DNA of 64,000 bases from an uncultured virus (IMG/VR IMGVR_UViG_3300020171_002032). Taxonomy: Duplodnaviria > Heunggongvirae > Uroviricota > Caudoviricetes. Positions 1-19,819 of this stretch are shown in pieces; the stretch's first letter is position 1, and each line of letters begins with the position of its first letter. The stretch is taken from IMG/VR virus record IMGVR_UViG_3300020171_002032; one strand, given 5' to 3'. The notes beneath the pieces were generated by a model, which saw only the letters and a list, made by a program, of their open reading frames with translations, searched no databases and was not told the origin of the DNA. Both the position numbers and the translations under genes were made by a program.

Positions 1-13
1 CGCTTAATAAGGG

Positions 14-751
14 TTAACCGCATTCATTGTCTTCAAGTTCGCACATGGGGCACGTTTCGCTCTTAGGCATCCATTTCAGAAGCGCCCTCTGTTCTTCTGT
101 TGCTTTTCGGAGTTGTTCACATGACAATTTAGCATAGAAAGGCAAGATTAGTTCAGGATACCGTCGTCCATTCTTTTCTAATACCTCTGCCCTCTCGTAT
201 AAATCAGGATGGTTCTTTAGAAGATTGAGCCAACTCTTAGCTGGTTGATATGGACAGAAGAAGCAACCGCTTTTGATAGGAACAGGTAGACCCGCCTCTT
301 TTATGATTTGGATGCACCCCTCTCTATCAATGCCCATATCTATTAAGGGAGATATGCTGCCGCAATCATTGTTTTTAGCCCGATTCTCTTCTCCTTTACA
401 GAAGCCAATCAAGGTCATGATGTCTTCACCGCTATAGTTTCGAATAAGATAGCTCTTAATTACGCGCTTCTTAAAGTGATCTGAACAGGAACGCCAAACT
501 GTCGTAGGAATGATTTTCTTTTCCATATTGTCCTGATAGAGGAGAGCATGGTTTTCTCTCTGAACAATACGAAGGTCGATGTTGTGTTTCTTGCAGAATG
601 GTTTAATGACTTTTTCGATATACTGGTATGTTTCTGGTTGTTCTCCTCCTGTATCTGCAAAAATAGCCACATCAAAATCGACTTTACCTTGAGCCTTGAG
701 AACTAACAAAGCAGTACTATTGACTCCTGCACCAAGCGATAAGACTCGCAT
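14..751 (-). CDS. PAPS reductase-like (PP-loop adenine nucleotide alpha-hydrolase) protein, possibly DNA modification
   Basis: VLSLGAGVNS PP-loop, FADTGGE and KSGCFFCP motifs; flanked by sites at 1 and 772. Confidence 0.75.
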   Translation of the reverse strand: MRVLSLGAGVNSTALLVLKAQGKVDFDVAIFADTGGEQPETYQYIEKVIKPFCKKHNIDLRIVQRENHALLYQDNMEKKIIPTTVWRSCSDHFKKRVIKSYLIRNYSGEDIMTLIGFCKGEENRAKNNDCGSISPLIDMGIDREGCIQIIKEAGLPVPIKSGCFFCPYQPAKSWLNLLKNHPDLYERAEVLEKNGRRYPELILPFYAKLSCEQLRKATEEQRALLKWMPKSETCPMCELEDNECG

Positions 752-794
752 ACTTTCACATCATCACTATACGCTTAACTACACTTAACTGCAT

Positions 795-1004
795 CTATGG
801 TCGCCTGAATTTAAGAGGATCTCTCTGAACTGGCGGAAGGTGAATAGGCCCAGAGTATTCTATGGAGCCTGTACCCTTACACGGAGGGCAAGGCTTCCAG
901 CCCCAGTTCCAAACATCATTTTTGAAGACCTTTCCGCTACCTCTACAATTCGGACAAACCCGTTTTCTCACTTCTGATGGTTGAGTTTTATACATGCTTT
1001 CCAT
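795..1004 (-). CDS. small DnaJ-type zinc-finger protein
   Basis: CPNCRGSG and CPPCKGTG (CxxCxGxG) repeats. Confidence 0.65.
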   Translation of the reverse strand: MESMYKTQPSEVRKRVCPNCRGSGKVFKNDVWNWGWKPCPPCKGTGSIEYSGPIHLPPVQRDPLKFRRP

Positions 1005-1037
1005 CCACCTCCATTTTTCCCCACAAATGTCCCCACA

Positions 1038-1385
1038 TCAAGACCCAGTGGGAACAATCTCGTTAACATCAATGATGCCAGCATCAATGTAGGCTCTAAC
1101 GATTTTGAGCAACCTCTTCTTGATAGCGTTGACCATATATTGGCAACTCTCGTCTTCATTCATCTTAACTATGGATAATCCCTGTTCCTTTATTGCTGGA
1201 AATCCAGTGCCAGGCTGCTTTCCCTTATGCTTTCTGCCAGGGCCTGCAAGCATTTGACGTACTTGCCGCACGGTCCAATCAATACTCCAGTTGTCGAAGT
1301 TGTCCCAATTGATCTTATCCTTGATCACGCTCTTGCCGCAGAATATACATGCTATCTGTTCCTGTGTCGCGTTTTCCTTTGCCAT
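1038..1385 (-). CDS. hypothetical protein (N-terminal CxxC)
   Basis: 115-aa ORF, ATG start, co-oriented with neighbours. Confidence 0.65.
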   Translation of the reverse strand: MAKENATQEQIACIFCGKSVIKDKINWDNFDNWSIDWTVRQVRQMLAGPGRKHKGKQPGTGFPAIKEQGLSIVKMNEDESCQYMVNAIKKRLLKIVRAYIDAGIIDVNEIVPTGS

Positions 1386-1502
1386 GACCGTACCTTAATC
1401 CCTTACGGTTTTTATGCTTTTCCGTTTGACTCTTGGAACTACTGGGAGTCGGAAGATAAGGATAGTCCGTTATAACGGTTTTATACCATAAACGCTCTGG
1501 AT

Positions 1503-1524
1503 GCGGTTAATTTAGTTTAACCGC
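1503..1524. repeat. perfect copy of the dif-like site GCGGTTAA-TTTAGT-TTAACCGC
   Basis: Perfect 8-bp inverted arms with a 6-bp spacer, at the point where gene orientation diverges. Confidence 0.9.
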
Positions 1525-1899
1525 GTGGTCGAAGAGGCTCGAAAAAGAACGTGTTTTGGCATATCAGAGGGGTTCGAAAAGTCGGAGTTGGGCTAGATTC
1601 TTGGCGATAAGGCTGGAAGGGGTCGAAATCTTGGCGGGCTGGCGGAAGTTTGAGGGGTTTGCATGGTTATGGGTCTCGGTTTTTCGAAGGTGTGTCGTGG
1701 TCTGGGGGGCAAGGGGGCATGGTCTCCATGGCCGTGGTTCCTCGCGCATGTTGATCATGGTCACGGGTTCGTGGGGCATGAATATATAAGGGTGGGGAAA
1801 ACTCGGAGTTTTGGGGTGGTTTCGGGGGTTGGGGCTGGTTTTGAGGTATCTTATGTTATGGGGATATGTTGAAGATTGATATGTTGGTTTTATATACTT

Positions 1900-2560
1900 G
1901 AAAAGGCACGTTAGAGGTTTGACGGTCAAACGCGAGAACAAGGTCAATAAAAAAGTGTGGTTGACCGTAAGACGCAAGGCAAATAGAAACGTAAACCGTG
2001 AAGCATGGACATAAGCCTTCCTTCCGAAGCGACCATATTCACGGTAAAAAGCGGGCATCTAGCGTCTAGGCGATGAGAGTAGTAGAAGATTGAAACCCCC
2101 CGTTGGCCTTTGGCCTGTTCTGGGTCTCGGTTGACGGAGAGCCGAAAGAAACCCGCCGCATTTAAAGCGGTTGCTTGATCATTGAGGGCGATAGTGCGAG
2201 AAAGGCGTTCTCAACGCCTGGGTTATCGTCTCCGTGGAAGTCGGAGCCTGAAAGCTTAACAAGACGTGCGGTTATGCGATGTTGCTGTGTGATCTAGAAG
2301 AGCCTGAGAGATTAGCTTCGCAAGAGCTTCTTAGGTATGACTAGACACCCTGGTCAATTAAATCTTCGCCTACCACGTAGGCCCCTACACTACTCTAGTT
2401 ATTGCCTCAACGGTGATAGAGGCGGCAAGAGACGGTATTTCCTGAAGCGGAACCCAGCTCTCGTAAATGAACGAGATTCGCCGTCCACAGCTTTTGAGGA
2501 AGGGATAAGACCAAAAGGAAACTAGAGCGGAAGTGATCCAGCAGCTACCGCATAATCATT
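1900..2560 (+). ncRNA. candidate large structured non-coding RNA (element A)
   Basis: No credible ORF; GC-richer than flanks; many GNRA-like capped hairpins, e.g. CCTGAGA..AGCTTC-GCAA-GAGCT..TCTTAGG at about 2303-2335; shares short motifs with 12675-13640. Confidence 0.5.
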
Positions 2561-2569
2561 AACATTAAA

Positions 2570-2627
2570 GGGTGAGGGCTTCATTTTCAGTTATCTCTCT
2601 CCTTATCTCCTTTCCCTCTCCTCACCC
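2570..2627 (+). ncRNA. hairpin GGGTGAGG/CCTCACCC enclosing a pyrimidine-rich loop
   Basis: 8-bp perfect stem 2570-2577/2620-2627. Confidence 0.4.
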
Positions 2628-2640
2628 AAAGGGTGAAAAA

Positions 2641-2853
2641 ATGACCGAATTAGAAACTAGGCTCAAACATGATGGAGCTTACCGAAAAGATGGAAAAATC
2701 TTTTGTTCAGTGCATCCAGAGACAGAGCTAAATAATGATGGATCATGTAAGGAATGTCTCAGAACTGAATCAATAATGGCTAGTGACATGCAAGAAGCAC
2801 AAGCCATGAACAAGGCTCAAGAAATCTACGAGAACGACGATTATTTTGAATAA
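2641..2853 (+). CDS. hypothetical protein (CxxH/CxxC)
   Basis: ATG after AAGGGTG; 70 aa. Confidence 0.7.
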   Translation: MTELETRLKHDGAYRKDGKIFCSVHPETELNNDGSCKECLRTESIMASDMQEAQAMNKAQEIYENDDYFE

Positions 2854-2902
2854 TTCCCTTCTTTCTTTCGTTTATATGTTTTTAACCGCAAGGGTGCAAA
2901 AC

Positions 2903-3262
2903 ATGAAAATCGAAAATCTAAAGGAAAAACTTCACACTCCAATCAAGGAAGGCGAAACATGGCTACAGAATCAATGGCCTGCTCAACCAAACAAAAGATA
3001 TTCCGATGTCACATACTTGAACTACCAGAACATCGAAGACCTTTTTGGAAGGAAGGCAAGCACGAAGATTCACAATGCTGTACTAGATCATCCAGAAATA
3101 CCTGTTGTGGTGGTTGCTGTACTTGACAAGAACGGAAAAGTCGAGGGACCGCGTGTATTCATTCAGAATGAAGCACATTACTACGGTCAATATGAACTGT
3201 TCGCTTGCAGTGCTGGTATGGATGGATTTGTCGAAGTTTTCCACAACGTCAAAAACAACTAA
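2903..3262 (+). CDS. hypothetical protein (array unit)
   Basis: ATG after site 2869 and AAGGGTG. Confidence 0.75.
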   Translation: MKIENLKEKLHTPIKEGETWLQNQWPAQPNKRYSDVTYLNYQNIEDLFGRKASTKIHNAVLDHPEIPVVVVAVLDKNGKVEGPRVFIQNEAHYYGQYELFACSAGMDGFVEVFHNVKNN

Positions 3263-3321
3263 ACCCTTTCCTTTTTCTCTCTTCCATACTGTTAAGCGTC
3301 TTTATGCGAAGGGTGTAGAAA

Positions 3322-3483
3322 ATGAGCAAGAAGATAACAATTGTTTATCATAAAGGCAAACCGACAATAGAGAATCTGAAAGCCATAGTTGCCATGCTCT
3401 CTGACGGCTATCTTCAGGGTTACGAGCAACCTACGGGTATAAATTGGGAAGTCATGGGAGACTATGACGAACTACTGAATTAG
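3322..3483 (+). CDS. small hypothetical protein, 53 aa (MSKKITIVYH...)
   Basis: Fills the interval between sites 3289 and 3496; below the ORF-track size cutoff. Confidence 0.7.
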   Translation: MSKKITIVYHKGKPTIENLKAIVAMLSDGYLQGYEQPTGINWEVMGDYDELLN

Positions 3484-3528
3484 CTTCTCCTTTTTCTGTT
3501 AATATGGAATATCTGCAAGGGTGATGAT

Positions 3529-3690
3529 ATGCAGGTCAAGATAAAGTACGACAATAGCAATGAAGTAGGCTCCATGTCGCCTGAGTATTGGATGCTAGTA
3601 GTCGAGTTGCGCGGTGCGCCAAAAATAGTGGATATGGTAAAGGAACACATTAGAGAGCTAATGAAGAATAACAAGGCCGTTGAATGGTAA
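3529..3690 (+). CDS. small hypothetical protein, 53 aa (MQVKIKYDN...)
   Basis: Fills the interval between sites 3496 and 3712. Confidence 0.7.
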   Translation: MQVKIKYDNSNEVGSMSPEYWMLVVELRGAPKIVDMVKEHIRELMKNNKAVEW

Positions 3691-3750
3691 ACCCCATACC
3701 TTTTTCTCTTTCGTTTAAATAGAATTAACTGCAAGAAGGGTGATAAAATC

Positions 3751-4389
3751 ATGCCGACTGGATATACAGCCATGTTAGACGATAACCCTAAAATGACCAC
3801 TCAACAATGGATTATGCAGGGGTTAGCAAGAGCCTTTGGAATTTGTGTAATTCTCCGCGATGAGTCTCTTAATCTAACGGAAGAACAGATCACGCAGAGA
3901 ATCGCTGAAGATGGCAAACGTGACATTGGCTATCATCAAACAGAATTGAACAAGGCTATAGAAGAATCCGTCAAGCTCGCTAAGAGAACTGAAGTAGAAT
4001 GGGAGACCGCTTGGCAAAAAGACGAACAGGAAAAAGAACAACACAACAAGAACTCGATTGCCAGAGCAAAGAAAATGACAGAAAGACACTTTCAAGTCAT
4101 AAATGACTTAGAACGCATTTTAGCCTCGCCCGAAGTCGATGAAATCACAAAGAACATCGCCAACTATGGCATAGAACAACTTAAGCTTGTTAAAAGCGAA
4201 CGCGAACCCTATATCCAAGAATCTATACCTTTTGAAGCCTACAGAGTTAACACCATCAAATCCAACACCAGAGACATTCAATATTACACTGAAGAACTAG
4301 ACAAAGAAAAAGAGCGAGTGAATGGCCGAGTCCTTGCTTACTCCAAATTACGGAAAGACTTAGATGCAGTTTTCCATACAAAAACCTAA
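3751..4389 (+). CDS. coiled-coil hypothetical protein (MPTGYTA N-terminus)
   Basis: 212 aa, helical and charged; between sites 3712 and 4404. Confidence 0.8.
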   Translation: MPTGYTAMLDDNPKMTTQQWIMQGLARAFGICVILRDESLNLTEEQITQRIAEDGKRDIGYHQTELNKAIEESVKLAKRTEVEWETAWQKDEQEKEQHNKNSIARAKKMTERHFQVINDLERILASPEVDEITKNIANYGIEQLKLVKSEREPYIQESIPFEAYRVNTIKSNTRDIQYYTEELDKEKERVNGRVLAYSKLRKDLDAVFHTKT

Positions 4390-4436
4390 GCTTCTCTTTT
4401 TTTCGTTTAAGTAGCATTAGCTGAAGGGTGCTGAGA

Positions 4437-4622
4437 ATGCCAGAAGAAGGATACAGAAACGCACCGCTATTCTTGACGACTACCGCGAAATGTGATCTTA
4501 CCGAATTACCCATCAAAATAAAACTAGCAACACCAAAACTCCTATTCGAGTCGCTTAACCAAAAACGAATTGAAACGGACAAAGTGATAGTGGAGTTCGA
4601 AGAAGAGAAGGAAAAAGAATAG
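4437..4622 (+). CDS. hypothetical protein
   Basis: Between sites 4404 and 4636. Confidence 0.65.
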   Translation: MPEEGYRNAPLFLTTTAKCDLTELPIKIKLATPKLLFESLNQKRIETDKVIVEFEEEKEKE

Positions 4623-4668
4623 CTTCCTCCTTTTTCTGTTAATGGAATTTATGCGAAGGGTGCAAAAT

Positions 4669-5958
4669 ATGGCAAGCGTTATCGTGTTGAAAAAAGGACA
4701 GTTAGACATCGAGGAAGCTTTAGGAAAAATGAAATGGGACACGGAGAAATTTGAGATGGAACTAGAAATGTTCGCTAAAACTCAATCGCCACAGATCCAG
4801 GAGAAGCTTCGAAAGCAATACAATCAATATATGCATCGGTGCGGTTGGCCGATGGAACTTGTTGTTATTTCTGAACCGCTGCCACAACTGTCTGGCCCCA
4901 AATTTCTGCCACGGCTACCTAAAAAGAAACAACCACTAGAACTGCCAGAAATTAAGCCACAAACAGAACCAACAGTGATAGCAGAGGCAACTCCAACAGT
5001 AGAAGCCGCATCTTCGCAACAAACAGAATCAGTTCCAGAAACGAAAGAAGCAGAGACTCCTATACCGTTAGCGGTACAAGAACCTGACCCGACTCCCCAA
5101 GAAACAAAGCCAAACGAGACAGAAACTAAAACAACCGAGAATGTGCAATCTCAACCTGAAACCGACAAACCCGCGAAAGTGAACATTGTTGCAGATGCGT
5201 ATTTCAGCGTGTCCGACCCGATACTTCTAAAACGTCTATTCGAAACCATTCACGGACTGCTAGACGAAGTAACTTTCCAATTTGGGCCTGACCACTTACT
5301 TATTCGTGCTATGGACCCCAGTAGAGTAGCCATGCTCGACTACACCATAAAGAAGGAACATTTCGAAGAATGGGAAGTCAAGAAACCTGGATATGCAACA
5401 TTCAACATCGGAGAAGTTCTCAAGGTCGTGTTCGCAGCTATCAAAAAGGACACAACCATAAAATTGACAGTGAATCCAGTGACGGACAAACTGATCTTCA
5501 CTCTCAGAGACAGTCGAACAAGAACAAGAGAATTCCCACTTCTCAGCACAGATGAGGCTCCAGAAGTTATTCCAAGACCAAAAATTCAATTCAACGCTCT
5601 CTTTAAGGTTGCCAGCAAAGAATGGCAAGACGACATCGCGGAAATGACAAAAGCTTCAGATCATGTCGAGATTCATGTAACTCAAGAAGGCGTGAAAGTC
5701 AAGGCACTTGGCGATTATGTCAAGGCCGAAAACAACTACCAGAAAGGCTCCGACATACTGCTGGACATCCAAACAAAAGAGGATGCTTGTGCAAAGTTCA
5801 GTCTAAGTTACCTCGCTAAAGACTTCGACTTCTTTGAACCAAACCTCTGCGACATCGTAACCATAGAAATGACAACTGACATGCCAATACGAGCAACCCT
5901 ACATACAAAATTCGGTGATCTTCAGCATTATCTCGCGCCAAGGATCGAAACAGAATAA
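4669..5958 (+). CDS. pcn: PCNA sliding clamp with long N-terminal extension
   Basis: C-terminal ~250 aa carries PCNA motifs (RAMDPSRVAM, FSLSYL, MPI, YLAPRIE); N-terminal domain plus P/E/T/Q-rich linker. Confidence 0.9.
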   Translation: MASVIVLKKGQLDIEEALGKMKWDTEKFEMELEMFAKTQSPQIQEKLRKQYNQYMHRCGWPMELVVISEPLPQLSGPKFLPRLPKKKQPLELPEIKPQTEPTVIAEATPTVEAASSQQTESVPETKEAETPIPLAVQEPDPTPQETKPNETETKTTENVQSQPETDKPAKVNIVADAYFSVSDPILLKRLFETIHGLLDEVTFQFGPDHLLIRAMDPSRVAMLDYTIKKEHFEEWEVKKPGYATFNIGEVLKVVFAAIKKDTTIKLTVNPVTDKLIFTLRDSRTRTREFPLLSTDEAPEVIPRPKIQFNALFKVASKEWQDDIAEMTKASDHVEIHVTQEGVKVKALGDYVKAENNYQKGSDILLDIQTKEDACAKFSLSYLAKDFDFFEPNLCDIVTIEMTTDMPIRATLHTKFGDLQHYLAPRIETE

Positions 5959-5975
5959 CCCCCTCTTCTTTTTTT

Positions 5976-6160
5976 AAGGGTGCTGGTTGAGGGCATGGTC
6001 AAACCCTAACGGGAATTTACGTGAGACATTGCCCTCAAACCCTTAAGGGTGGAATGGCGATTTGGACAAGGAAGGGGGGCTTCAAGGCTTAAAAACCACC
6101 GCAACCCCTGGGATTCCAGCGAGTCGGAAAGCTTGGTTTGTCAGTCGCTCCAAAACCCTT
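5976..6160 (+). ncRNA. two tandem candidate small structured RNAs, each closed by AAGGGT/ACCCTT
   Basis: Unit 1 (5976-6044): TTGAGGGCA/TGCCCTCAA stem with CCC-TAAC-GGG hairpin. Unit 2 (6045-6160): GCGATT/AGTCGC, GACAAG/TTTGTC, CTGG-GATT-CCAG. Confidence 0.55.
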
Positions 6161-6376
6161 TATAACATGCGGTTAAGCAAGTTTAAACGCATATCGAAGG
6201 AGTATCGAAAAACATGTTGATTTACCATATCAATCAGACTTCGACCAAGACTGTTTTTTCCATGCGTAAAATTAACTGCAACATGAAAATCGGTTTTCAC
6301 GTAGAGCTACTTTGATGGAGACATATGAATCCCTGAAAAGTCGGTTCGAAGTAGGTTTCGAAGTAAGGGTGAGAAC

Positions 6377-12674: not shown

Positions 12675-13640
12675 AAGGGTGATAGAAAAGGTTGCGTATC
12701 CAGCGTCCAAAACTGCTGGAATCACGATACTAGAAACCTATGGTCAAAGCTGAAAAGGCAGGGAGAAACGGATTAGAGATGCGGGTGATCCAGAACTGCA
12801 TTGATGACGAGCGACACTCCCAGTCCAAATATGTCATACTAGCACCTTTAGGTTCACGATATTTTTATTAATAAGTTAATCGTTAACCTTTTCATGCGAC
12901 AAGATAGAGCAGCAAGAAATGAGTATACCCGTAATTGGACTCGTAAACGTATAGCACAAGGGATCTGTCCTGAGTGTGGTTCTAAAATTGATCGTAAAGG
13001 TTCTCTATGTAGAAAATGTGCTGACCGTAAGAGCGAACTTGGCAAAAAGAATGACCTTCTAAGAGGTACCGAATATCATAAAAATCGTCTTGAGATTTTC
13101 CAAAAATTATCTAGAAAAGAAGTGCCTGAGTGTAAATATTGTGGCTGTGATGTCTATAAGGCTTTAGAATTGAACCATAAAAATGGTGGTGGAAGCAAAG
13201 ATAAACGCAAACATGCAAGTTTCACTATTATAAATCAAATAGCTAATGGAACACGTGATATCAATGATTATGAAGTCGCTTGTAGAGTTTGTAATGCTGA
13301 ACAATATTCAGAGAAAAAATGGGGTTTGCAGTGGGAAGTAAAATTTATAAAGCAATCAGTACCTAATTAGAAAACCTAGCACTTTAGGGTCGGTTGGACT
13401 CGAAAGGGAGACCACGCTTAAGGCTAAACTCTAGGGGGAACGCCTCTAGGACGTGCCCACGGAGAGAACCGTGCCACAAGTGAATAATGCTCAAGGGCAT
13501 AATCGGAAAGGGATGCGGTGTGATTGACCTGAGAGTTGAGCTAACGACTCAACAACCGATCCGCCTTGATATTTGCACACCTAGAGGTGATGAAGGCTCT
13601 GAGTTGCCATGGCGATTCAGATGCTAGAGCCTCACCCTAA
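12675..13640 (+). ncRNA. candidate large structured RNA (element B) interrupted by an HNH gene
   Basis: Non-coding and hairpin-rich (CTAGGGG/CCTCTAG, CACGG/CCGTG, GGTGA-GGCTCT/AGAGCC-TCACC); ends AGGGTGA...TCACCCT. Confidence 0.55.
12894..13370 (+). CDS. HNH-type (homing) endonuclease with N-terminal zinc finger
   Basis: CPEC..CRKC, CKYCG...LELNHKNGGG...YEVACRVCN; AT-richer than flanks; flanked by a near-direct repeat. Confidence 0.75.
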   Translation: MRQDRAARNEYTRNWTRKRIAQGICPECGSKIDRKGSLCRKCADRKSELGKKNDLLRGTEYHKNRLEIFQKLSRKEVPECKYCGCDVYKALELNHKNGGGSKDKRKHASFTIINQIANGTRDINDYEVACRVCNAEQYSEKKWGLQWEVKFIKQSVPN

Positions 13641-13687
13641 CTTACGGAATGACAAGATTTTAAGGAACTTGTCCTCTTAGAATCATT

Positions 13688-13996
13688 ATGGTTCGACAAA
13701 AGTGCGATGAACTAGGTTTCTTGGTGGAAACAAGAAAAATTCCAATAAATGAAATCTCCTACAAGGAAACCCAACCAGTTGCTCATAAGGCCAGAGCCGA
13801 GAAATACGCTGAACTGATACGAAAAGGAACAAAATTCAAGCCAATTATGGTGTTTGGCAAACGCCACAAAGGGGACACCTACCAAGTCTTCGATGGTCAC
13901 GCTAGAGTTTTGGCTCATAGAATACTAGGTCAGAAACAGATAGAAGCAGAAATAACCTTGGTAGATAGAAAAGGAAAACCAAGAAGCTGTCATTGA
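13688..13996 (+). CDS. ParB/Srx-like N-terminal domain protein
   Basis: PIMV...YQVFDGHARVLA motif. Confidence 0.75.
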   Translation: MVRQKCDELGFLVETRKIPINEISYKETQPVAHKARAEKYAELIRKGTKFKPIMVFGKRHKGDTYQVFDGHARVLAHRILGQKQIEAEITLVDRKGKPRSCH

Positions 13997-14029
13997 ACGG
14001 TTAATAGTCTATAACCGAAGGGTGAAGAA

Positions 14030-14284
14030 ATGAACTTAGAAAAAGCTCTCTTGTTGCTGAAAACGATAATCGAGAAATGCAAATTCGATGAGATTGGCTT
14101 TACCGCCGTCAAACATCCGCTTGATGATAAGGACATACTTGACATCATAATCCAAGAGAACGTGTATCATTGGCAATTCCAAGAACTAGATGCAATACTG
14201 GGAGAATACGACGATATTGAAATGCAGTTCGACTCAGGCAATGATCAACTCAGAATCTTTCGAAAGGAGCCAACAAGCTCCTAG
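14030..14284 (+). CDS. acidic hypothetical protein
   Basis: After site 13998. Confidence 0.7.
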   Translation: MNLEKALLLLKTIIEKCKFDEIGFTAVKHPLDDKDILDIIIQENVYHWQFQELDAILGEYDDIEMQFDSGNDQLRIFRKEPTSS

Positions 14285-14316
14285 CTTTTTTTTCAATTAT
14301 CGCAAGGGTGTAAAGA

Positions 14317-14628
14317 ATGAAAGAAAGTCTAGCTAATTTAACTGCTCGGACAAAAGATGTAATTCTTGAGCAGCTCAAAAGCGGGCAGCCGATGTCGGAC
14401 AAGAATCTTATGCCACTGGTTCTCTCGATAATAAATCTGATAGAAAAAAGGAACGGAGATCTAGAACATAGAACCGAAACCGTTCACATAATCGCATACA
14501 TCAAGGCGTATAAAGAACTCGAAGCGAATGGTCAGCTCAAGATCACTAGATCCGTAGGAGTTCCCGCTCCTATGACAGACTATGAAACACTCTATCAATT
14601 ACAGCGCCCACAATCCCCCTCTTTCTGA
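14317..14628 (+). CDS. hypothetical protein (possible wHTH)
   Basis: ATG after AAGGGTG. Confidence 0.65.
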   Translation: MKESLANLTARTKDVILEQLKSGQPMSDKNLMPLVLSIINLIEKRNGDLEHRTETVHIIAYIKAYKELEANGQLKITRSVGVPAPMTDYETLYQLQRPQSPSF

Positions 14629-14641
14629 AGGGTGAAAATGA

Positions 14642-14809
14642 ATGGCGCAAATTCACATACCAATTCTTAGAGAAGGCCAACCAGAGAACTTTAAAAACAC
14701 CTTCGAGATCAGTCTAATGAATTACGTCAACAATGGCTACAAAATCATCTACGCTCTTCTCGATAGCAATGATAAGTTGGTGCTAATTCTGCAAGGAGAA
14801 ATCAAGTAA
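14642..14809 (+). CDS. small hypothetical protein, 55 aa
   Basis: ATG after AAGGGTG. Confidence 0.6.
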   Translation: MAQIHIPILREGQPENFKNTFEISLMNYVNNGYKIIYALLDSNDKLVLILQGEIK

Positions 14810-14860
14810 CCTAAATTTCCATCATTTTTCTGTTAACTCATTAAGTGTAAGGGTGAAAAT

Positions 14861-15034
14861 TTGCCTGAACACTTCATATCAACATTCGACTTTGAGAAAA
14901 CCACAAAGAGAACCTACAGATTTCATGAATACGGACCAGATCCAGACCTTCCAATCAAGACACTTTATGTCAAGCAAACTGCTTTCAAGGCCCAGCCTAA
15001 GAAACTGAAGGTCACAGTCGAAGTGATCGAATAA
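14861..15034 (+). CDS. small beta-rich hypothetical protein, 57 aa
   Basis: TTG after AAGGGTG; FEKTTKRTYRF...TLYVKQ. Confidence 0.6.
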   Translation: MPEHFISTFDFEKTTKRTYRFHEYGPDPDLPIKTLYVKQTAFKAQPKKLKVTVEVIE

Positions 15035-15189
15035 TGCCAAACTACATCGTCACGGCCAAAGTCAGTTTGTTAGTCAGAAGTGCTAAAAATGCTGAAGAAG
15101 CCAAAGACATGTTCCGAGAGCAACTTATTACTACGTCCTTTCTCTTGGAGACACCTAAAGAAACGTTGAACGTAAAAGTAGCTAAATAA
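15034..15189 (+). CDS. small hypothetical protein, 51 aa
   Basis: TAATG coupling to the previous ORF. Confidence 0.55.
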   Translation: MPNYIVTAKVSLLVRSAKNAEEAKDMFREQLITTSFLLETPKETLNVKVAK

Positions 15190-15236
15190 CCCCCTTTTCT
15201 TCTCGTTTAATTACCCATAAGCGCAAGGGTGTGAAT

Positions 15237-15593
15237 ATGAATCTGACTGAACTCTGTTCAATCATTCCAAAATCTGTCGTGCAAGATGGCGATGCTGTAA
15301 CACTCCTCAGAGCCAGTATGGAAGCAACGCAAAAAGTCTACAAAACCGCAAAGATATACTTCGCTCAATCAGACGAACAGGATCAACTGATTATGAAAGC
15401 TATCAACAAGAAACTGGCGATTATGAATCCGAATGAGATTGTCTACAAAGGCGTTTATGGCGAAAAAGGAAAAAGAGTCGAATACTGGTTCATGATGACT
15501 GGCATTCTGATAATCCGAGGAATAGACCAACACTGGAGCTTTATGGGGCCTCGCATGACAAAGAAACAATGGGAAACCTTAGCAAAATCCTAA
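15237..15593 (+). CDS. hypothetical protein
   Basis: Between sites 15204 and 15604. Confidence 0.7.
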   Translation: MNLTELCSIIPKSVVQDGDAVTLLRASMEATQKVYKTAKIYFAQSDEQDQLIMKAINKKLAIMNPNEIVYKGVYGEKGKRVEYWFMMTGILIIRGIDQHWSFMGPRMTKKQWETLAKS

Positions 15594-15638
15594 ATCCTTT
15601 TTTCTTTTAATACGATTTAACCGAAAGGGTGAAAACAG

Positions 15639-15995
15639 ATGAATTTGAAAGATCTAGCAGAAGCATGGACTATCATGTGGGGAATAAGCTATATCATCAC
15701 TGCACTCGTAGCACCGTCAATCTCTGAAGTTCCAGCGTTCGCCTACGGAGTCTTAGGAGTCTTCATAATCGTCATGGTTTTCTTGATGCATTTTATACAT
15801 GGTCGCCCTGTGACTGTTGTTTTCTTTGCTTTAGGAATAATGATGACATACGGCGGAGTGGTTTCATGGACTGGAGCTGGACTCTGGAATGTGCCTTTCC
15901 CAAACAAAGAGCTGTTTCAAGTCAGCATGGCCTTCGCCGACATGATCAGTGCAGTCTTCCTCTTCTTACTCGGCATCGAAATAGCGAGAAAATAA
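15639..15995 (+). CDS. four-TM membrane protein
   Basis: Four hydrophobic segments. Confidence 0.75.
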   Translation: MNLKDLAEAWTIMWGISYIITALVAPSISEVPAFAYGVLGVFIIVMVFLMHFIHGRPVTVVFFALGIMMTYGGVVSWTGAGLWNVPFPNKELFQVSMAFADMISAVFLFLLGIEIARK

Positions 15996-16024
15996 TCTCT
16001 TTTTTTTTCTCAAGGGTGAATTGA

Positions 16025-16234
16025 ATGTCAGAACTTCTGCAAATGGAGAAGAAAGACGAATCAAAACCCTATAAAGGGGTCTGTTGCAAATCGTGTTATC
16101 TTGCGAAAGGCGACAAATGCAGATGTAGATGCAAGAAGAAATATCATGGTCTGGGAGTCATAAAGAGGCTGACCAATATGGAGGAAAAGAAAGATGAAAA
16201 CGATAAATCTACAAGTTCCAGAACCCCATCTTGA
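16025..16234 (+). CDS. Cys-rich basic small protein
   Basis: CCKSC...CRCRC..YHG. Confidence 0.6.
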   Translation: MSELLQMEKKDESKPYKGVCCKSCYLAKGDKCRCRCKKKYHGLGVIKRLTNMEEKKDENDKSTSSRTPS

Positions 16235-16334
16235 ACTCATCGATCAACTCATCAACGAAAATCTATATGCCAGCAGAAATGATGCAATAAGGCAAGCAGT
16301 CCGCGATCTACTGAAACTTCATGGCAAACTCTAA
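16194..16334 (+). CDS. ribbon-helix-helix (CopG-like) regulator
   Basis: MKTINLQVPEPHLELIDQLI...YASRNDAIRQAVRDLL; GGAGG upstream. Confidence 0.8.
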   Translation: MKTINLQVPEPHLELIDQLINENLYASRNDAIRQAVRDLLKLHGKL

Positions 16335-16364
16335 CCCCATCTTTTTCTAATGAAGGGTGTAATA

Positions 16365-16586
16365 ATGGTTCGATTAGGAAAACAACAGACAAAGATCCTT
16401 AAACTTCTTGCAGAACATCCTGACTCAACAATTTTGGAAATCGGGCATATGTTCCATAAAAAACCTATCTTGACAGGCACTAAAGAATATAATTCGATAT
16501 GTAGAAGTTTGCATCTACTGGAAAGTCACGGTTACGTTGAAAGAAAGAATGGTCAGATCAAATGGCACTCAACCAACAAAACCTAA
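16365..16586 (+). CDS. winged-helix DNA-binding protein
   Basis: QTKILKLL...TILEI...SLHLLESHGYVER. Confidence 0.7.
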   Translation: MVRLGKQQTKILKLLAEHPDSTILEIGHMFHKKPILTGTKEYNSICRSLHLLESHGYVERKNGQIKWHSTNKT

Positions 16587-16703
16587 ATAACTTCTTCCTT
16601 TTTTATCATTTAAAGGGTGACTCTGGATGGCTTGTTCGTCATCTTAAGATCCCTCTTATATGATTGTCGAGCTGTCCGAAGTTGCCCCTGAAAGGGTGGT
16701 ACT

Positions 16704-16865
16704 TTGAGGTACTTCGATGACTTAGAAGGTTTCAAACACCTTGTTCATGCAATTCCCTTGACTCTTGAGGCAAGTCAGAGGCTTTGGTTGATGCTTGAAG
16801 AGGTGCTGAGTAAGCATCCGCAATGGGAGAAGTACGTGACCAATAACTGCTTGTTGCATCCCTAA
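16704..16865 (+). CDS. small hypothetical protein, 53 aa
   Basis: TTG after AAGGGTG; ends before site 16878. Confidence 0.55.
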   Translation: MRYFDDLEGFKHLVHAIPLTLEASQRLWLMLEEVLSKHPQWEKYVTNNCLLHP

Positions 16866-16910
16866 CCTTTTTCTATTCGTTTAATGTAGCTTATGCGCAA
16901 GGGTGATTGA

Positions 16911-17078
16911 ATGAGCGATAAGAAACCACATGTCTATCTCGGCTTCAAGAATGGAAAACTTGATACTATCATCATTTCTAGGATCTCTGACCGAGAGAGT
17001 TCAATTGACTGCGATTATTACATAGATGAACCCCAAGACGCTCGGCAACAGATTGAGAAATGGCTTTCCGAACTCTAA
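16911..17078 (+). CDS. small hypothetical protein, 55 aa
   Basis: Between sites 16878 and 17099. Confidence 0.65.
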   Translation: MSDKKPHVYLGFKNGKLDTIIISRISDRESSIDCDYYIDEPQDARQQIEKWLSEL

Positions 17079-17135
17079 TCTCCCCTAACTTTTTATTTCT
17101 GATAAGGCATATTAAACGAAGGGTGTACCATAAAA

Positions 17136-17411
17136 ATGAACGACTCAATGCTCGCGTTTGATGGAGAGAACTATTGGGAAGTCACGAATATTGAGGGAGT
17201 TCTAGGCGTTCTTAAGAGGAATAGATCATTTCGTAAAGAATTGATCACTACGATGAAAAACATATCAGAAACAATAGTTGCTCTGCGAGGATTAGCAGAG
17301 AAAGGTTACGTGAGAACTAGGGGAGATCCTAGTGATGATGATGCTTTGCTCAGATTTGCCGTCATACTCAAAGAAAACTTCCCTCATGATTGGAATATCA
17401 GCAAACCCTAA
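17136..17411 (+). CDS. hypothetical protein
   Basis: Between sites 17099 and 17423. Confidence 0.7.
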   Translation: MNDSMLAFDGENYWEVTNIEGVLGVLKRNRSFRKELITTMKNISETIVALRGLAEKGYVRTRGDPSDDDALLRFAVILKENFPHDWNISKP

Positions 17412-17459
17412 CCTTTTTCTATCTGTTATGTATAATTAACCGCATGAAAGGGTGTTTTG

Positions 17460-17765
17460 ATGAAATTTTGTCCTAAATGTGGATATGAAGACTCGATTTA
17501 TTGGCGACATAGCCGTTACGACTTTAATGCTGACTATTGCCGAAGAGAGGAATTTCCTGAAATCGAACCTGAACTCGATTTGGCATTGGGCGAAGATGAA
17601 CCACTTGTTGACGGGCGGTATGTCTACTACCGAAGGGGGACAGGAAAAGTTTGGGTCTATCGTGTCGCACTTGAAGATTTTAAAGTAAGTTGTGAAAAGA
17701 GACGAGCCTATACACCTCCAAAACAAACAATCACACCAAAATCCTTAACTTCTTTTTGCAGTTAA
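17460..17765 (+). CDS. zinc-ribbon hypothetical protein
   Basis: MKFCPKCG; its stop codon is the TAA of site 17758. Confidence 0.7.
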   Translation: MKFCPKCGYEDSIYWRHSRYDFNADYCRREEFPEIEPELDLALGEDEPLVDGRYVYYRRGTGKVWVYRVALEDFKVSCEKRRAYTPPKQTITPKSLTSFCS

Positions 17766-17802
17766 TAGGTTATAACCGCATGGAAAAAGGGTGAACCCAA
17801 GT

Positions 17803-18057
17803 ATGAGACATAAGAACTCAGATATGAGATTCGCCAATATGGCAAATGCTGGACTAGCTGGAACAAGATTACATGTCAAAGTTGGCACTCATCCCGCTTC
17901 CTACGCAAATATGATTGGGCGAACTAGACCACCAAAAGTGGGAGATCTTCTATTATTGGAAAATGAACTCGAAGGTGGCAAACCCTTGAGGGTTCGTTGC
18001 GATGAAATCAAAGACTGTGGATATGGGGATATTCTCTACTACATGGAGTTGATGTGA
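17803..18057 (+). CDS. hypothetical protein flanked by a 12-bp direct repeat
   Basis: AGGTTATAACCG at 17767 and 18057. Confidence 0.7.
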   Translation: MRHKNSDMRFANMANAGLAGTRLHVKVGTHPASYANMIGRTRPPKVGDLLLLENELEGGKPLRVRCDEIKDCGYGDILYYMELM

Positions 18058-18092
18058 GGTTATAACCGAACTCGAGCTTGAGGGGTGAAACA

Positions 18093-18398
18093 TTGAAAGA
18101 CGATTGCACTTGGCTAAACTTCAGATGGGGTTTAGACATCTCCTACACTGGCATTGCTGAAGCACCAAAACTTGCAGAACTATGCAGAAAATACAGACGA
18201 TTTTGGGATGGTGAATATTTCTATATGATTCAAGCAAACAAAGTCATTCTCCGTTGGCCCGACTGGCGTAGGGATTATCGAATTGATTTGGATAAGGTGG
18301 CGACTCGAGCTGATCGGAAAAACCTTGCTAAATTCCGCATCAATCGAAAGAAAGGTACTCTCGAGCTCGAGATTCCTAAGCATTTGCGGTTAACTTAG
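18093..18398 (+). CDS. hypothetical protein
   Basis: TTG after GGGGTG; 3' end overlaps site 18386. Confidence 0.65.
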   Translation: MKDDCTWLNFRWGLDISYTGIAEAPKLAELCRKYRRFWDGEYFYMIQANKVILRWPDWRRDYRIDLDKVATRADRKNLAKFRINRKKGTLELEIPKHLRLT

Positions 18399-18407
18399 TT
18401 TATGCGT

Positions 18408-18995
18408 TTATGGTCCTGCTCTCTGCTCGATGTTCCAACCAACAAAATTCGCTGATAATGCTCCTACAGTTTTGAAGGTCTCAGTTAGAACGGGAGTGAG
18501 ATTAACCACGGCTGCAGAGGGGCTTGTTACCCTTATCGTCAAATTACTGGCGAAAACATGCCAAACTCCGTCAAATACTCCGTCTGGATCTCCATAAGCA
18601 ATACTTCCTCCTCGGATGTTGCCAGCTCTAGTATCAGTCAACTGTATCCTAGTTATTAGACCACCTTGCAATGCGAACGTTTGACTTATAATTTGTCCTC
18701 CACTGTTGCCTCCAGGTACGCCATCAAGACTGTTTGCCCAACCCCATAATACAGTGTAGTTTCCGTTGATGTCTCCTGTTATGTCCAGAAGTGGAAAATG
18801 CCAAAAATCATATGCGGTTGCTCCATCTCTCTGTCTCGTTGTTGTCATATGCGGTTCTTGCATGAGTTCTGTTTTGAAACCAGCGAACTTGGCTAATTCT
18901 GCTCCTGAAACTTTCGGTCTTGTCAACGCATAAATTAATGCTGCTCCGCCTCCGACAACACCAACTGCCAGTAAAGCCTTTGTTGTATCATTCAT
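18408..18995 (-). CDS. N-terminally membrane-anchored beta-rich protein (virion-like), in opposite orientation to the array
   Basis: MNDTTKALLAVGVVGGGAALIYALTRPK anchor; bounded by sites 18386 and 19053. Confidence 0.75.
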   Translation of the reverse strand: MNDTTKALLAVGVVGGGAALIYALTRPKVSGAELAKFAGFKTELMQEPHMTTTRQRDGATAYDFWHFPLLDITGDINGNYTVLWGWANSLDGVPGGNSGGQIISQTFALQGGLITRIQLTDTRAGNIRGGSIAYGDPDGVFDGVWHVFASNLTIRVTSPSAAVVNLTPVLTETFKTVGALSANFVGWNIEQRAGP

Positions 18996-19087
18996 TGAAA
19001 GATCCCATATTCTTTTCCTTCCATTAGGCTTAAATGCTTTCTTCACTGTCTTGCAGTTATACATCGTTAAACGAAGGGTGGATATAT

Positions 19088-19276
19088 GTGAAAACTCCGA
19101 AAGAAGCTGACCCAAAAACGATCAAACCATGGCCTAAAGACAATTCCCAGTATCAATGTAGTGCTTGTGTTCATCCGCCAGAGGCACATCGAACAGCAAA
19201 TGTGAAAAACACAATAGGCAAACAAGTCCATTGGTGTTCATACCGTCATTGTCGGTGCAAAGGCTATTCCGATTAA
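19088..19276 (+). CDS. Cys/His-rich small protein
   Basis: CSACVH...HWCSYRHCRC; GTG after AAGGGTG. Confidence 0.6.
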   Translation: MKTPKEADPKTIKPWPKDNSQYQCSACVHPPEAHRTANVKNTIGKQVHWCSYRHCRCKGYSD

Positions 19277-19320
19277 TCTCCTTTTTTTCGTTTAAGCAGA
19301 TTTATACGAAGGGTAATCCA

Positions 19321-19722
19321 TTGAACGAAATAATTGAAGGCTTGTGGATCGGTGACTGGCAAGATACTATATTTGAAGATACTCTCGAAAAAATGGGTTT
19401 TTCTTCTGTTCTGTGTGTGGTTCCTCATCATCATGCTCCCCCAGAGATGCGAAAAGAGTACAGAAAACTGAAGGTGATGCATTGGCACTATGAAGAGCGA
19501 AAAGAAATCGAGATAGAACCGCCACTCAACTTCATAGATCAAGGTTTACAGGAAGGTCATGTCCTAGTTCATTGCGGTGCTGGAATAGATCGCTCTCCAA
19601 CAGTGGTCATGATGTACCTGATTCGCAAGAAACGGATGGCACTAGATGAAGCAGTTAACCTAATTCAAGAAAGACGCAAGATTGCCATGCCTCATCCCGA
19701 TCAAGTTAAACAATGGCTATAA
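19321..19722 (+). CDS. dual-specificity protein phosphatase
   Basis: VLVHCGAGIDRS (HCx5R) and LWIG motifs. Confidence 0.9.
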   Translation: MNEIIEGLWIGDWQDTIFEDTLEKMGFSSVLCVVPHHHAPPEMRKEYRKLKVMHWHYEERKEIEIEPPLNFIDQGLQEGHVLVHCGAGIDRSPTVVMMYLIRKKRMALDEAVNLIQERRKIAMPHPDQVKQWL

Positions 19723-19819
19723 AATCCATCCTTTTTCTGTTAATCGGGATTATGCGAAGGGTGTCTGAGTAATCCAAAGATTAAATATAGTTCTGAGAGA
19801 CTATTTCTATTGACCTAGA

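Follow-up and report, generated by a model that had tools for sequence, protein, structure and literature searches.

Which protein reads the short inverted repeats that punctuate the accessory-gene array of this uncultured virus, and what does it do there? The window (the whole 64-kb stretch analysed) is termed an archaeal virus-like genome on account of its archaeal-type PCNA and helicase, its Xer-like integrase, and a related 66-kb viral contig (G001:C14, hereafter C14) binned with a 2.1-Mb Bathyarchaeia MAG. The virus lineage is associated with Bathyarchaeia, and the archaeal origin proposed in the initial annotation is supported by the same features. A third virus, L009, was also compared; PCNA is the only gene it has in common with the window's array. 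From sequence comparison, we tentatively favour the reading that the Xer-like tyrosine recombinase encoded by the virus itself uses the repeats as heterospecific crossover sites. In the main rival, possible if somewhat doubtful in our judgement, they are operator or promoter elements read by a virus-encoded dimeric regulator (a repressor silencing the early array in lysogeny, or an activator), and homologous recombination, recombination at short homologies or template switching within the surrounding module turns over the cargo.

Dyad sites and their intergenic module

Each site comprises two inverted arms of half-site consensus TTCGGTTAA separated by exactly 6 bp (N6), 24 bp in total, and the innermost TTAA is nearly invariant. 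Archaeal and bacterial dif sites have a like layout, being described in PMC2958812 as inverted arms flanking a 6-bp spacer. Using a half-site matrix derived from the window's own sites, we detected 42 dyads in the 64-kb window, whereas 10 shuffles yielded 0.3 on average; 32 fall within 1-19763 and 10 beyond. The strict pattern GTTAW-N6-WTAAC matched 10 times versus 0.22 expected, with a maximum of 2 in 100 dinucleotide shuffles. About five degenerate copies recognised by eye bring the array to ~37 sites, in good agreement with the roughly 35 dif-like sites initially annotated in 1-19763. These copies lie at 1-22 (unscored by the matrix and cut by the window start, leaving an arm remnant, centre taaggg and right arm TTAACCGCA at the 3′ end of minus-strand gene 14-751) and, on the plus strand, at 8172-8195 (ctagag, below the matrix threshold), 11474-11496 (5-bp centre), 11942-11965 (weak, cgataa) and 14828-14851 (ctcatt). 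Judged by a gene list covering 82% of the window, a single one of the 42 matrix sites is fully contained in a gene, and another three overlap one by >6 nt.

The matrix scan of the full contig and its relatives, which the initial annotation had suggested, also returned 37 sites in C14, and 18 of 18 motif matches in the 2.1-Mb Bathyarchaeia bin are on the 66-kb viral contig. Among 401 Bathyarchaeia genomes, only the bin with this contig has a motif cluster. The motif is virus-specific and not a host motif, a confinement that also suits the operator reading.

The plus-strand array (2629-19765) holds ~45 small units, with a T run after most stop codons and AAGGGTG 5-6 nt before the start codon. 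Matrix sites assigned to the plus strand begin at 2867-2890 (atgttt, in the module before gene 2903), 3287-3310 (gcgtct), 3494-3517 (tatgga), 3710-3733 (atagaa), 4402-4425 (gtagca) and 4634-4657 (tggaat, before PCNA). They continue at 6575-6598 (tgatta), 7009-7032 (ggaagc), 7402-7425 (aacaag), 7704-7727 (ttggaa), 9162-9185 (tttagg), 9525-9548 (attacg), 9836-9859 (tcctgc), 10077-10100 (agatgt), 10404-10427 (tacccg) and 10707-10730 (gcttag). Further along are 12237-12260 (agtatt), 12636-12659 (acacaa), 13996-14019 (tagtct), 15202-15225 (ttaccc), 15602-15625 (tacgat), 16876-16899 (tgtagc), 17097-17120 (ggcata), 17421-17444 (gtataa), 17757-17780 (taggtt), 19287-19310 (gcagat, before the phosphatase gene) and 19735-19758 (tcggga). 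Unstranded matrix sites lie at 770-793 (ctacac, between two minus-strand genes) and, past the array, at 29977-30000 (tgcaag, in the divergent intergenic region before the helicase gene), 32044-32067 (tcaaac, after the helicase gene), 38174-38197 (ctctca) and 45618-45641 (weak, gatgat, before gene 45628); the others are given below.

As the initial annotation had it, the sites, which set apart about forty small genes, delimit mostly single-gene units with unrelated cargo: Pfam matches comprise PCNA, a dual-specificity phosphatase, zinc-ribbon proteins and an integrase fragment, and a plus-strand tRNA-Met occupies 12267-12344, with an 11-nt direct repeat containing AAGGGTG on both flanks. The stop codons described as lying inside an arm, 14-16 and 17763-17765, are indeed so placed, the latter ending gene 17460-17765 within the left arm of site 17757-17780.

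The annotation did not include a rigid composite around the site, which runs from stop codon through C-rich stretch, T run, site, AAGGGTG and 5-6 nt to the start codon; T run, site and AAGGGTG ribosome-binding motif make up an intergenic module of ~45 bp. Sites stand just upstream of 28 of 49 AAGGGTG gene starts in the plus-strand array. The right arm abuts or overlaps AAGGGTG in 23 of these 28 (offsets -2 to 0), and a T run abuts the left arm in 19. A promoter or operator would be expected to show such fixed phasing, a crossover site would not; the two TTAA blocks also start one helical turn (10 bp) from each other, a spacing that many dimer operators have. The full module at 12237-12260 directly precedes tRNA-Met, and a C14 site precedes a conserved structured non-coding RNA; these placements appear promoter-like, as RNA genes need promoters. 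Subsets of the C14 modules pair the site with additional conserved words, again in favour of an operator. Precedents exist for such arrangements: according to PMC8707807, the intergenic repeats of halovirus HF2 contain promoters and are conserved in position across the genus, and mycobacteriophage repressors are described in PMC9283540 as binding many genome-wide 'stoperator' sites.

Other contexts argue against the operator reading and count for crossover, since no promoter is needed there. Sites lie between convergent gene ends at 18385-18408 (cttagt, with neither T run nor AAGGGTG) and 39664-39687 (ataggc), and at the 3′ end of minus-strand gene 62259-62708 (62224-62247, tttgtt); the last array site, 19735-19758, is a full module including AAGGGTG with no gene behind it. 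A lone minus-strand gene read from the sequence at 18410-19006 is bounded by 18385-18408 and by 19052-19075 (acatcg, between divergent gene starts). In addition, centre and left arm are insufficiently AT-rich for a TATA box, and we found no regulator: for the array protein with the highest conservation (183 aa, 65% identity), no known fold matched at E<=0.001.

Six-letter centres across related viruses

No centre is repeated on either strand among the 42 in the window or the 37 in C14. In the window's only paralogous pair, 1502-1525 (tttagt, at the head of a 1.1-kb non-coding region) and 6168-6191 (gcaagt), both near-perfect and unstranded, the arms are near-identical and three centre letters differ. 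The initial annotation was right both that all spacers differ and that uniqueness is weak evidence, as only 0.55 repeats are expected by chance in the window. Between the window and C14, 7 centres are identical when both orientations are counted, versus 0.94 expected (P=2e-4), or 5 versus 0.54 in the same orientation only, and centre pairs with one mismatch show no excess (8 versus 9.3 expected). The match is therefore all-or-none. L009 has 2 centres in common with C14 versus 0.14 expected; with the window it has 2 in common by matrix and a further 3 by eye.

What surrounds these centres is not shared. In pairs with the same centre, the arms are no more alike than random (13.8 versus 13.4 of 18 positions, P=0.29), the flanks are at background identity, and the flanking genes are non-homologous on both sides in 8 of 8 pairs tested by blastp. 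An uncontacted centre in an operator should drift, whereas these centres are either identical or unrelated, and the background similarity of the arms likewise speaks against that reading. Order is also largely retained: gtagca, tttagg, attacg and tagtct occur in one order in both the window and C14, and each of the two has gcagat 2-2.5 kb before its integrase gene; full collinearity with C14 presupposes a circular or permuted genome, and the ends of the contig show no overlap. The ggcata of the window occurs in C14 as its reverse complement. With L009 the window shares aacaag, ttggaa, ctagag, tttagg and gcgtct, four of the five being collinear; gcgtct is at a different place in L009, and acaaga is out of order between L009 and C14. 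The proposed check for conserved spacers around different cargo thus came out positive: two relatives carry identical centres in collinear positions next to non-homologous genes. The centres behave as labels.

They are not universally kept. Sites in equivalent positions between homologous flanks differ in centre (1506 versus C14 43048; 774 versus 41117), and homologous cargo is not bounded by the same centres. Short-homology recombination would also favour matched centres, which counts against the crossover reading. On the operator reading, exchange would take place within the repeated terminator-operator-SD module, as with T4-type PeSLs, terminator/promoter cassettes described in PMC2839356 and PMC4122927 as mediating modular shuffling, and matched centres would merely lengthen the identical stretch.

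Traces of exchange are similarly divided. Two strain-level variants carry other cargo upstream; their match resumes within the T run that lies left of the left arm (a loose end at 9163, and a joint from 15959 to 12631, before site 12636-12659). In both, the break is in the T run and not in the spacer. Together with the 11-nt repeat around the tRNA, these breakpoints indicate that some exchanges at least lay outside the centre, and they fit the homology-driven exchange of the operator reading. In L009, a right arm alone directly follows the stop codon of the gene preceding PCNA, forming a junction at the arm-centre border. Excised circles or hybrid junctions were not found among the contigs compared.

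The recombinase and gene exchange

The tyrosine recombinase noted 1.7 kb beyond the last site is encoded at 21498-23867 on the minus strand and is split by an intein that contains a LAGLIDADG domain. The best solved-structure match of its family profile (A2) is the Pyrococcus XerA-like 4a8e (E=2.6e-12), followed by IntI4 and Thermoplasma XerA. Window and C14 integrases are 56% identical, as expected for a protein reading a shared arm consensus. A weak matrix site lies at the 3′ end of the window's integrase gene (21483-21506), and the cluster upstream comprises 24057-24080 (aaagag in the gene direction, as before the C14 integrase), 24425-24448 (gaggaa) and 24620-24643 (ccgtat). In both viruses, 3-4 sites cluster upstream of the integrase gene, resembling operator clusters and favouring a regulator.

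It is improbable, in our view, that the centre serves as a label for a different protein (e.g., a nuclease cutting in N6 to leave overhangs specific to each site, or an unspecified factor) while the recombinase only integrates at a tRNA gene. Centres kept letter-perfect while arms drift would suit such a protein, as would the virus tRNA-Met, of which contigs from other organisms match only 12297-12334, as would be seen at a tRNA attachment site. Among the window's proteins we recognised no such enzyme, and to our knowledge a system of this kind has no precedent. An RNA hairpin or cruciform formed by the inverted arms for termination, processing or translation control is very improbable: self-complementarity of the invariant positions (C, TTAA / TTAA, G) and a place between T run and ribosome-binding motif would fit it, but variable arm positions are uncompensated (left arm versus reverse-complemented right arm, 6.24/9 versus 6.22/9 with shuffled partners in the window and 7.14 versus 7.37 in C14), the T run precedes the palindrome instead of following it, and an Rfam search gave no family match.

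Arms without covariation point to a double-stranded protein site. For this reason the term integron-like does not hold, as integrons use folded attC sites and the present sites are 24-bp double-stranded dyads. A pdif system was also considered and rejected, for here the sites stay in place while the cargo changes.

According to the crossover reading, the dyads, as the core of the ~45-bp module punctuating the accessory-gene array, would be bound by the virus-encoded recombinase as a dimeric protein. The 9-bp arms would serve as generic binding elements. Cleavage would take place where arm and centre meet, partners would need the same 6-bp centre as their overlap, and exchange would run through the dyads. 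Since all centres in one genome differ, a virus would not recombine among its own sites and its array would not be deleted. Equal centres at equal relative places would let co-infecting relatives cross over only at equivalent junctions, swapping the genes between them, whatever these are. The same sites may have a second, regulatory use, and selection for compatibility is second-order and perhaps too weak to keep six letters over this divergence. If the crossover reading is true, these viruses would possess built-in crossover points for gene swapping among relatives.

Dyad sites and their composite module

The initial annotation had described the intergenic gaps as carrying dif-like sites with individual spacers. 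A strict palindrome, GTTAW-N6-WTAAC, occurs 10 times in the window versus 0.22 expected. An iterated 24-column matrix run on both strands returned 90 strand matches in the window, nearly all of them one palindromic place counted on each strand; mononucleotide shuffles (n = 20) averaged 3.85 and never exceeded 12. Using a half-site matrix (consensus TTCGGTTAA), with two arms mandatory and a spacing of exactly six bases, we called 42 dyad sites versus 0.3 across ten shuffles, and five weaker copies, one with a 5-bp centre, were spotted by eye. Each 24-bp site consists of two inverted 9-bp arms of a single kind around a 6-bp central region, a layout common to the 42 window sites and to 37 sites in G001:C14 (hereafter C14), a related viral contig with the same half-site consensus. 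All 42 centres in the window are distinct, and none repeats within C14 either. Thirty-two sites lie within 1-19763, and a single site of the 42 is wholly inside a listed gene, the gene list covering 82% of the window. With 42 matrix sites versus 0.3 in shuffles, intergenic placement and distinct centres, the description of the sites proved correct.

There is no covariation between the two arms of a site. In the window, a left arm and its reverse-complemented right partner match at 6.24 of 9 positions, versus 6.22 for shuffled partners; the C14 values are 7.14 versus 7.37. Each arm thus fits the consensus independently, which argues for a duplex site read by a dimer and makes a hairpin unlikely. 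In the 2.1-Mb Bathyarchaeia bin that holds C14, 18 of 18 motif matches fall on one contig, versus two matches for a control pattern, and no second cluster of the motif was present in 401 sampled Bathyarchaeia genomes (18 matches in G001, at most 6 in the others, up to 5 for controls). The dyad motif is not a host signal, and on these patterns the dyads are firmly predicted to be virus-specific protein-binding sites. No DNA-binding regulator that could act as a cognate repressor was recognised among the window proteins. The array, a series of small plus-strand genes at 2629-19765, includes a 183-aa zinc protein with eight conserved cysteines (10917-11468) that is its best-conserved gene (65% to C14) and apparently a hallmark of the virus group. 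It has 36 homologues and an AlphaFold model of pLDDT 78; considered as a candidate dyad binder, it gave no PDB fold match at E<=0.001.

The sites form part of a larger module composed of a T run, the dyad site and the heptamer AAGGGTG. The plus strand of 2600-19800 carries 49 AAGGGTG-type motifs, most of which stand 5-6 nt ahead of a start codon; the exact heptamer occurs 47 times on that strand and interval, 6 times elsewhere on the plus strand and 3 times on the entire minus strand. A dyad site ends at most 30 nt upstream of 28 of the 49 motifs, and in these site-bearing modules the right arm abuts or overlaps AAGGGTG in 23 cases while a run of at least four T abuts the left arm in 19. Of the other 21 motifs, which lack a site, eight have a T run of this kind no more than 20 nt away. 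The T run follows stop codons, the site holds a fixed position ahead of gene starts, and the module contains no stem-loop; behind a stop codon the T run presumably resembles an archaeal oligo-T terminator. Archaeal BRE/TATA promoters place an AT-rich TATA box about 25 nt ahead of the transcript start, and by this spacing the left arm would put starts at the start codon or the tRNA 5′ end.

Ribosome-binding sites in the array (2629-19765) are, almost without exception, of the AAGGGTG type, versus GGAGG- or AGGAG-type sites elsewhere (20000-64000), so the virus has two classes. Bathyarchaeia 16S rRNA terminates in the usual GGATCACCTCCT, which rules out AAGGGTG as the complement of an unusual rRNA end and makes AAGGGTGA / AAGGGTG a normal GGUGA-type ribosome-binding motif. 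Two micro-ORFs (10305-10367 and 10743-10814) encode peptides of 20 and 23 aa, mostly Glu and Asp, each with its own AAGGGTG. C14 carries 57 AAGGGTG-type motifs, and subsets of its modules (reverse-complement coordinates 44071-52383 and 46585-58290) have extra conserved words, namely a TACGTA core between site and AAGGGTG and TAGCATGGTA ahead of the site, which may be further regulatory elements.

Relatives and genome content

DNA near-identical to the window is found in groundwater metagenome runs (five rows from four studies, one possibly the source; none RNA). Searches of IMG/VR with the PCNA protein, an integrase alignment, a PCNA alignment and two DNA patterns returned no relatives, the patterns giving chance matches only, and the GenBank phage collection offered only remote matches to a halovirus PCNA and a Sulfolobales-virus helicase. 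A metagenome scan yielded L009, a contig of 5 kb with a PCNA domain 76-77% identical to that of the window, and a pattern scan of one genome per species yielded a single true relative, C14 (66,447 bp), binned with an uncultured Bathyarchaeia archaeon. Window and C14 share an integrase (56% identity), a helicase (62%) and PCNA (41-43%), as well as structural genes, glycosylation genes and a few array genes. As to earlier accounts of such sites, the available text of a study of Bathyarchaeia viruses (PMC10541130) is without the words promoter, intergenic, PCNA or intein, and we found no description in the literature searched on intergenic or palindromic motifs of archaeal viruses.

The window, part of an uncultured virus-like genome, encodes an XPB/Rad25-like helicase, a dual-specificity phosphatase, many zinc-ribbon proteins and an archaeal-type PCNA that carries a long extension at its N terminus. 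At 51857-61893, a cluster largely common to C14 encodes methyltransferases, a B12-binding radical SAM enzyme, two NAD-dependent epimerase/dehydratases, a pyruvyl transferase and glycosyltransferases, and probably serves glycan modification. A minus-strand gene at 795-1004 encodes a 69-aa zinc-finger protein conserved in C14, with a weak match (E = 3.6e-5) to PHROG families named anti-termination protein Q-like; the match is of interest given that a T run follows nearly every early gene.

Several non-coding stretches also stand out. The one tRNA-Met of the window, its only Rfam match at gathering score, lies between the two copies of an 11-nt direct repeat containing AAGGGTG (12257-12267 and 12345-12355), as if inserted through recombination at that motif. 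Matches in contigs of other organisms are limited to the tRNA part 12297-12334, resembling a tRNA attachment site. Rfam searches of 12600-13750 and 1400-6400 gave nothing at E<=0.1. An element of about 100 nt (6058-6156) is 78% identical to minus-strand positions 12028-12153 of L119, a contig of another virus. In a fold built from these two sequences only, 9 of 31 pairs are changed on both sides with pairing kept, and the element, which matches no Rfam family, is probably a structured viral RNA. Following a near-perfect dyad site, 1530-2630 is a G-rich 1.1-kb stretch without plausible genes and with repeated TCGAA words, of which 2420-2536 is 73% identical to a non-coding stretch that opens the C14 array; the 1.1-kb stretch is a possible origin or long non-coding RNA. 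Finally, 12660-13690, situated between the module at 12636-12680 and a ParB-like ORF (13688-13996), holds a Cys-rich ORF (12894-13370) between two structured-looking non-coding stretches and may be an intron with a homing-type gene.

Identical centres beside unrelated genes

PCNA is the sole homologous gene of the window and L009 by blastp and tblastx, yet five modules of the two contigs have identical centres. Four of these (aacaag, ttggaa, ctagag and tttagg) keep their order, and gcgtct lies elsewhere. The two pairs in which both members were called by the matrix give P = 0.01; the three further pairs were found by eye and left out of the statistics. Comparison of the window with C14 in one orientation revealed 5 identical centres versus 0.53-0.54 expected (P ~1e-4), and in both orientations 7 versus 0.94 (P = 2e-4), one of the two extra pairs preceding the orthologous integrase gene in both genomes. 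L009 and C14 have 2 centres in common versus 0.14 expected. Pairs with one mismatch between window and C14 numbered 8 versus 9.3 expected; centres are therefore either identical or unrelated.

The agreement is confined to the centre. Arms in the five shared-centre pairs agree at 13.8 of 18 positions versus 13.4 for random site pairs (P = 0.29), and a per-position profile shows background identity outside the six central letters, even in the close pair of window and L009. For all eight shared-centre pairs tested, the flanking genes on both sides are without similarity. Order is again retained between window and C14 for gtagca, tttagg, attacg and tagtct, and gcagat stands 2-2.5 kb ahead of the integrase gene in both; full collinearity requires a circular or permuted C14 genome, whose contig ends do not overlap. 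Conversely, position-equivalent sites with homologous flanks differ in their centres (window 1506 versus C14 43048, and 774 versus 41117). Homologous cargo lies beside unlike centres, and equal centres flank different cargo. One paralogous pair of sites within the window has almost identical arms, related flanks and three differing centre letters. A restricted vocabulary of permitted centres would yield repeats within a genome, and none was observed.

Two strain variants with other upstream cargo, one with a loose end at 9163 and one with a joint 15959 -> 12631, take up their match to the window again within the T run that precedes the left arm. Together with the 11-nt repeat around the tRNA, these breakpoints place at least some exchanges outside the centre. 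Another joint, 2587 -> 9824, was not used, its sides comprising 26 letters of 80% likeness.

Identical centres beside unrelated genes in three viruses match what the initial annotation had anticipated, spacers conserved around different cargo. Overall, two conclusions are firm: the dyads mark the junctions where unrelated cargo comes together in related viruses, and the identity of a junction resides in its six central letters rather than its arms.

Possible roles as crossover or regulatory sites

A tyrosine recombinase is encoded 1.7 kb past the array on the opposite strand (21498-23867, minus strand). The window copy is interrupted by an intein (about 440 residues) that contains a LAGLIDADG homing-endonuclease domain and must be spliced out, while the C14 enzyme is intact, with 326 aa and no intein. 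Of 108 homologues at E<=0.001, many contain PF00589; among the contigs that encode these homologues or those of the 183-aa protein, some are as long as 82-84 kb. A profile of 26 homologues, in which the Arg, His and Tyr columns are invariant, found as best solved structure the Pyrococcus XerA-like 4a8e (E = 2.6e-12), with the integron integrase IntI4 second and Thermoplasma XerA next. A distant homologue occurs in 73 of 401 sampled Bathyarchaeia genomes, and neither dyad sites nor an AAGGGTG array was found near those inspected (wide flanks for three of the best matches, in G065, G397 and G140, and nine further short loci). The array itself carries as cargo a truncated second recombinase, a 106-aa ORF (9201-9521) that matches only the mid part of the phage integrase domain and stops before the catalytic tyrosine.

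To our knowledge, the sole established mechanism that combines generic arms with an exactly matching centre is strand exchange by a tyrosine recombinase. Since the virus encodes an enzyme of the Xer kind, we favour the reading, to which we assign almost even likelihood, that the dyads are heterospecific crossover sites for this Xer-like recombinase. The inner TAA-N6-TTA of the dyad is, we assume, similar to that of dif. Xer recombinases act at inverted arms separated by a 6-bp spacer (PMC2958812). Unlike centres would then block recombination within a genome, and equal centres would permit exchange between co-infecting relatives at equivalent junctions. Several placements are easier to reconcile with boundaries than with promoters: sites where convergent genes end (18385-18408 and 39664-39687), a site at the 3′ end of a minus-strand gene (62224-62247), an inverted single gene in the array with dyad sites on both sides, and a final array module with no gene after it.

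The main rival holds that the dyad is a regulatory site, an operator or promoter, among which genes are shuffled by homology, an account we regard as possible if rather less than probable. It draws on the rigid phasing of the dyad with the T run and ribosome-binding motif, and on modules that precede RNA genes, one ahead of tRNA-Met and, in C14, a site ahead of a conserved structured RNA. Ahead of the integrase gene, window and C14 each have three or four clustered sites, which likewise have the look of operators or promoters. The T-run breakpoints and the unlike centres at equivalent positions weigh on the same side, and short-homology recombination would also prefer matched centres. Dozens of virus-specific sites occupy intergenic gaps (41 of 42 not wholly within a gene; 18 of 18 bin matches on the viral contig), as in a set of repressor operators or stoperators. 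The regulatory account has precedents in promoter-early stem-loops (PeSLs) of T4-type phages (PMC2839356, PMC4122927), halovirus HF2 promoter repeats (PMC8707807) and mycobacteriophage stoperators (PMC9283540). The sites at convergent ends and the module without a gene are less well explained by a promoter. Crossover and regulation are compatible and not mutually exclusive.

Among known systems, the dyads would work most like PeSL-mediated modular shuffling. Like the dyad modules, PeSLs (PMC2839356, PMC4122927) are composite motifs of short length that recur among small non-essential ORFans of a hyperplastic early region, where relatives differ by gene replacement between kept motifs. The T run behind stop codons and the fixed position ahead of gene starts would suit such a cassette. 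The PeSL is a sigma-70 promoter with a terminator hairpin and recombines by homology, whereas the dyad is a putative 24-bp protein site that shows no hairpin covariation and belongs to an archaeal virus. Unlike in the PeSL, moreover, the 6-bp centre is the only part kept between distant relatives. Stoperators and HF2 repeats (PMC9283540, PMC8707807) resemble the dyads as dozens of virus-specific protein-binding or promoter repeats that occupy the short gaps between genes of a temperate virus and keep their positions in related viruses. The former are asymmetric, read by a monomer and without a spacer, the latter are AT-rich promoters, and neither has a variable centre conserved site by site.

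Core sites of tyrosine recombinases consist of two inverted binding arms around a central region of 6-8 bp, a layout that the dyads share. Xer systems likewise have inverted arms, a 6-bp centre and an Xer-family recombinase; dif arms, however, are 11 bp (PMC2958812) and read by two different recombinases in bacteria, whereas dyad arms are shorter and the recombinase is viral. Both here and among the pdif modules of Acinetobacter plasmids, accessory genes are bounded by numerous sites on one replicon (PMC6449649, PMC13141974). A pdif module remains constant while its context varies, whereas here the site stays and the cargo changes, with about 40 sites bearing individual centres. XerC/XerD sites in alternating orientation bound dif modules, and the same module occurs in varied contexts. 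The dyads were rejected as such a system: their arms are of one kind, homologous cargo lacks the same centres and the same centres accompany different cargo.

The initial annotation had also interpreted the array as integron-like, and this part of its interpretation did not survive, in contrast to the conserved spacers beside unrelated cargo. The array does share with integrons one-directional, mostly single-gene units, recombination-type sites and a nearby tyrosine recombinase. Integron attC sites are longer imperfect palindromes, are recombined in a folded single-stranded form and move along with the cassette, and IntI adjoins attI and a common promoter for promoterless cassettes. Dyads are instead 24-bp duplex sites without compensatory pairing, positional rather than cassette-borne; there is no attI or Pc, the units have their own AAGGGTG and usually a T run, and the integrase lies 1.7 kb away. 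A role of the spacers as guide-RNA-like words was rejected, their 6-mers not being enriched in the two large non-coding regions (10 versus a mean of 18.8, and 4 versus 8.5).

If the dyads are indeed recombinase sites, they would also resemble engineered cassette exchange with heterospecific lox or FRT sites, in which arms are the same, spacers are unlike, only like sites recombine and cassettes swap without deletion. That laboratory design employs two or three spacer variants, whereas the dyad array has dozens, and we know of no natural system described with so many. The array may be a natural counterpart of recombinase-mediated cassette exchange, with some forty heterospecific Xer-type sites at which a viral recombinase swaps single genes, a proposal that we advance tentatively, at somewhat less than an even chance. 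Arms would be identical and each site labelled by its own 6-bp overlap, so the recombinase could act at matching addresses; accessory genes would swap singly between co-infecting relatives, and the virus would never delete its own array.

If regulation is the correct account, archaeal viruses would gain their first described PeSL-like composite regulatory module, and the array would open a rare view of expression signals in Bathyarchaeia-associated viruses, which have no cultured host. If crossover is correct, the array would be the first natural case of tyrosine-recombinase sites using their overlap region as a positional address, and possibly a set of naturally orthogonal sites for one recombinase. 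It would give these viruses a mechanism for swapping small accessory genes, probably for host takeover or anti-defence, with exchange confined to gene boundaries so that genes stay whole and the array is kept, and the old 'linker sequence' idea of modular virus evolution would become testable in an archaeal virus.
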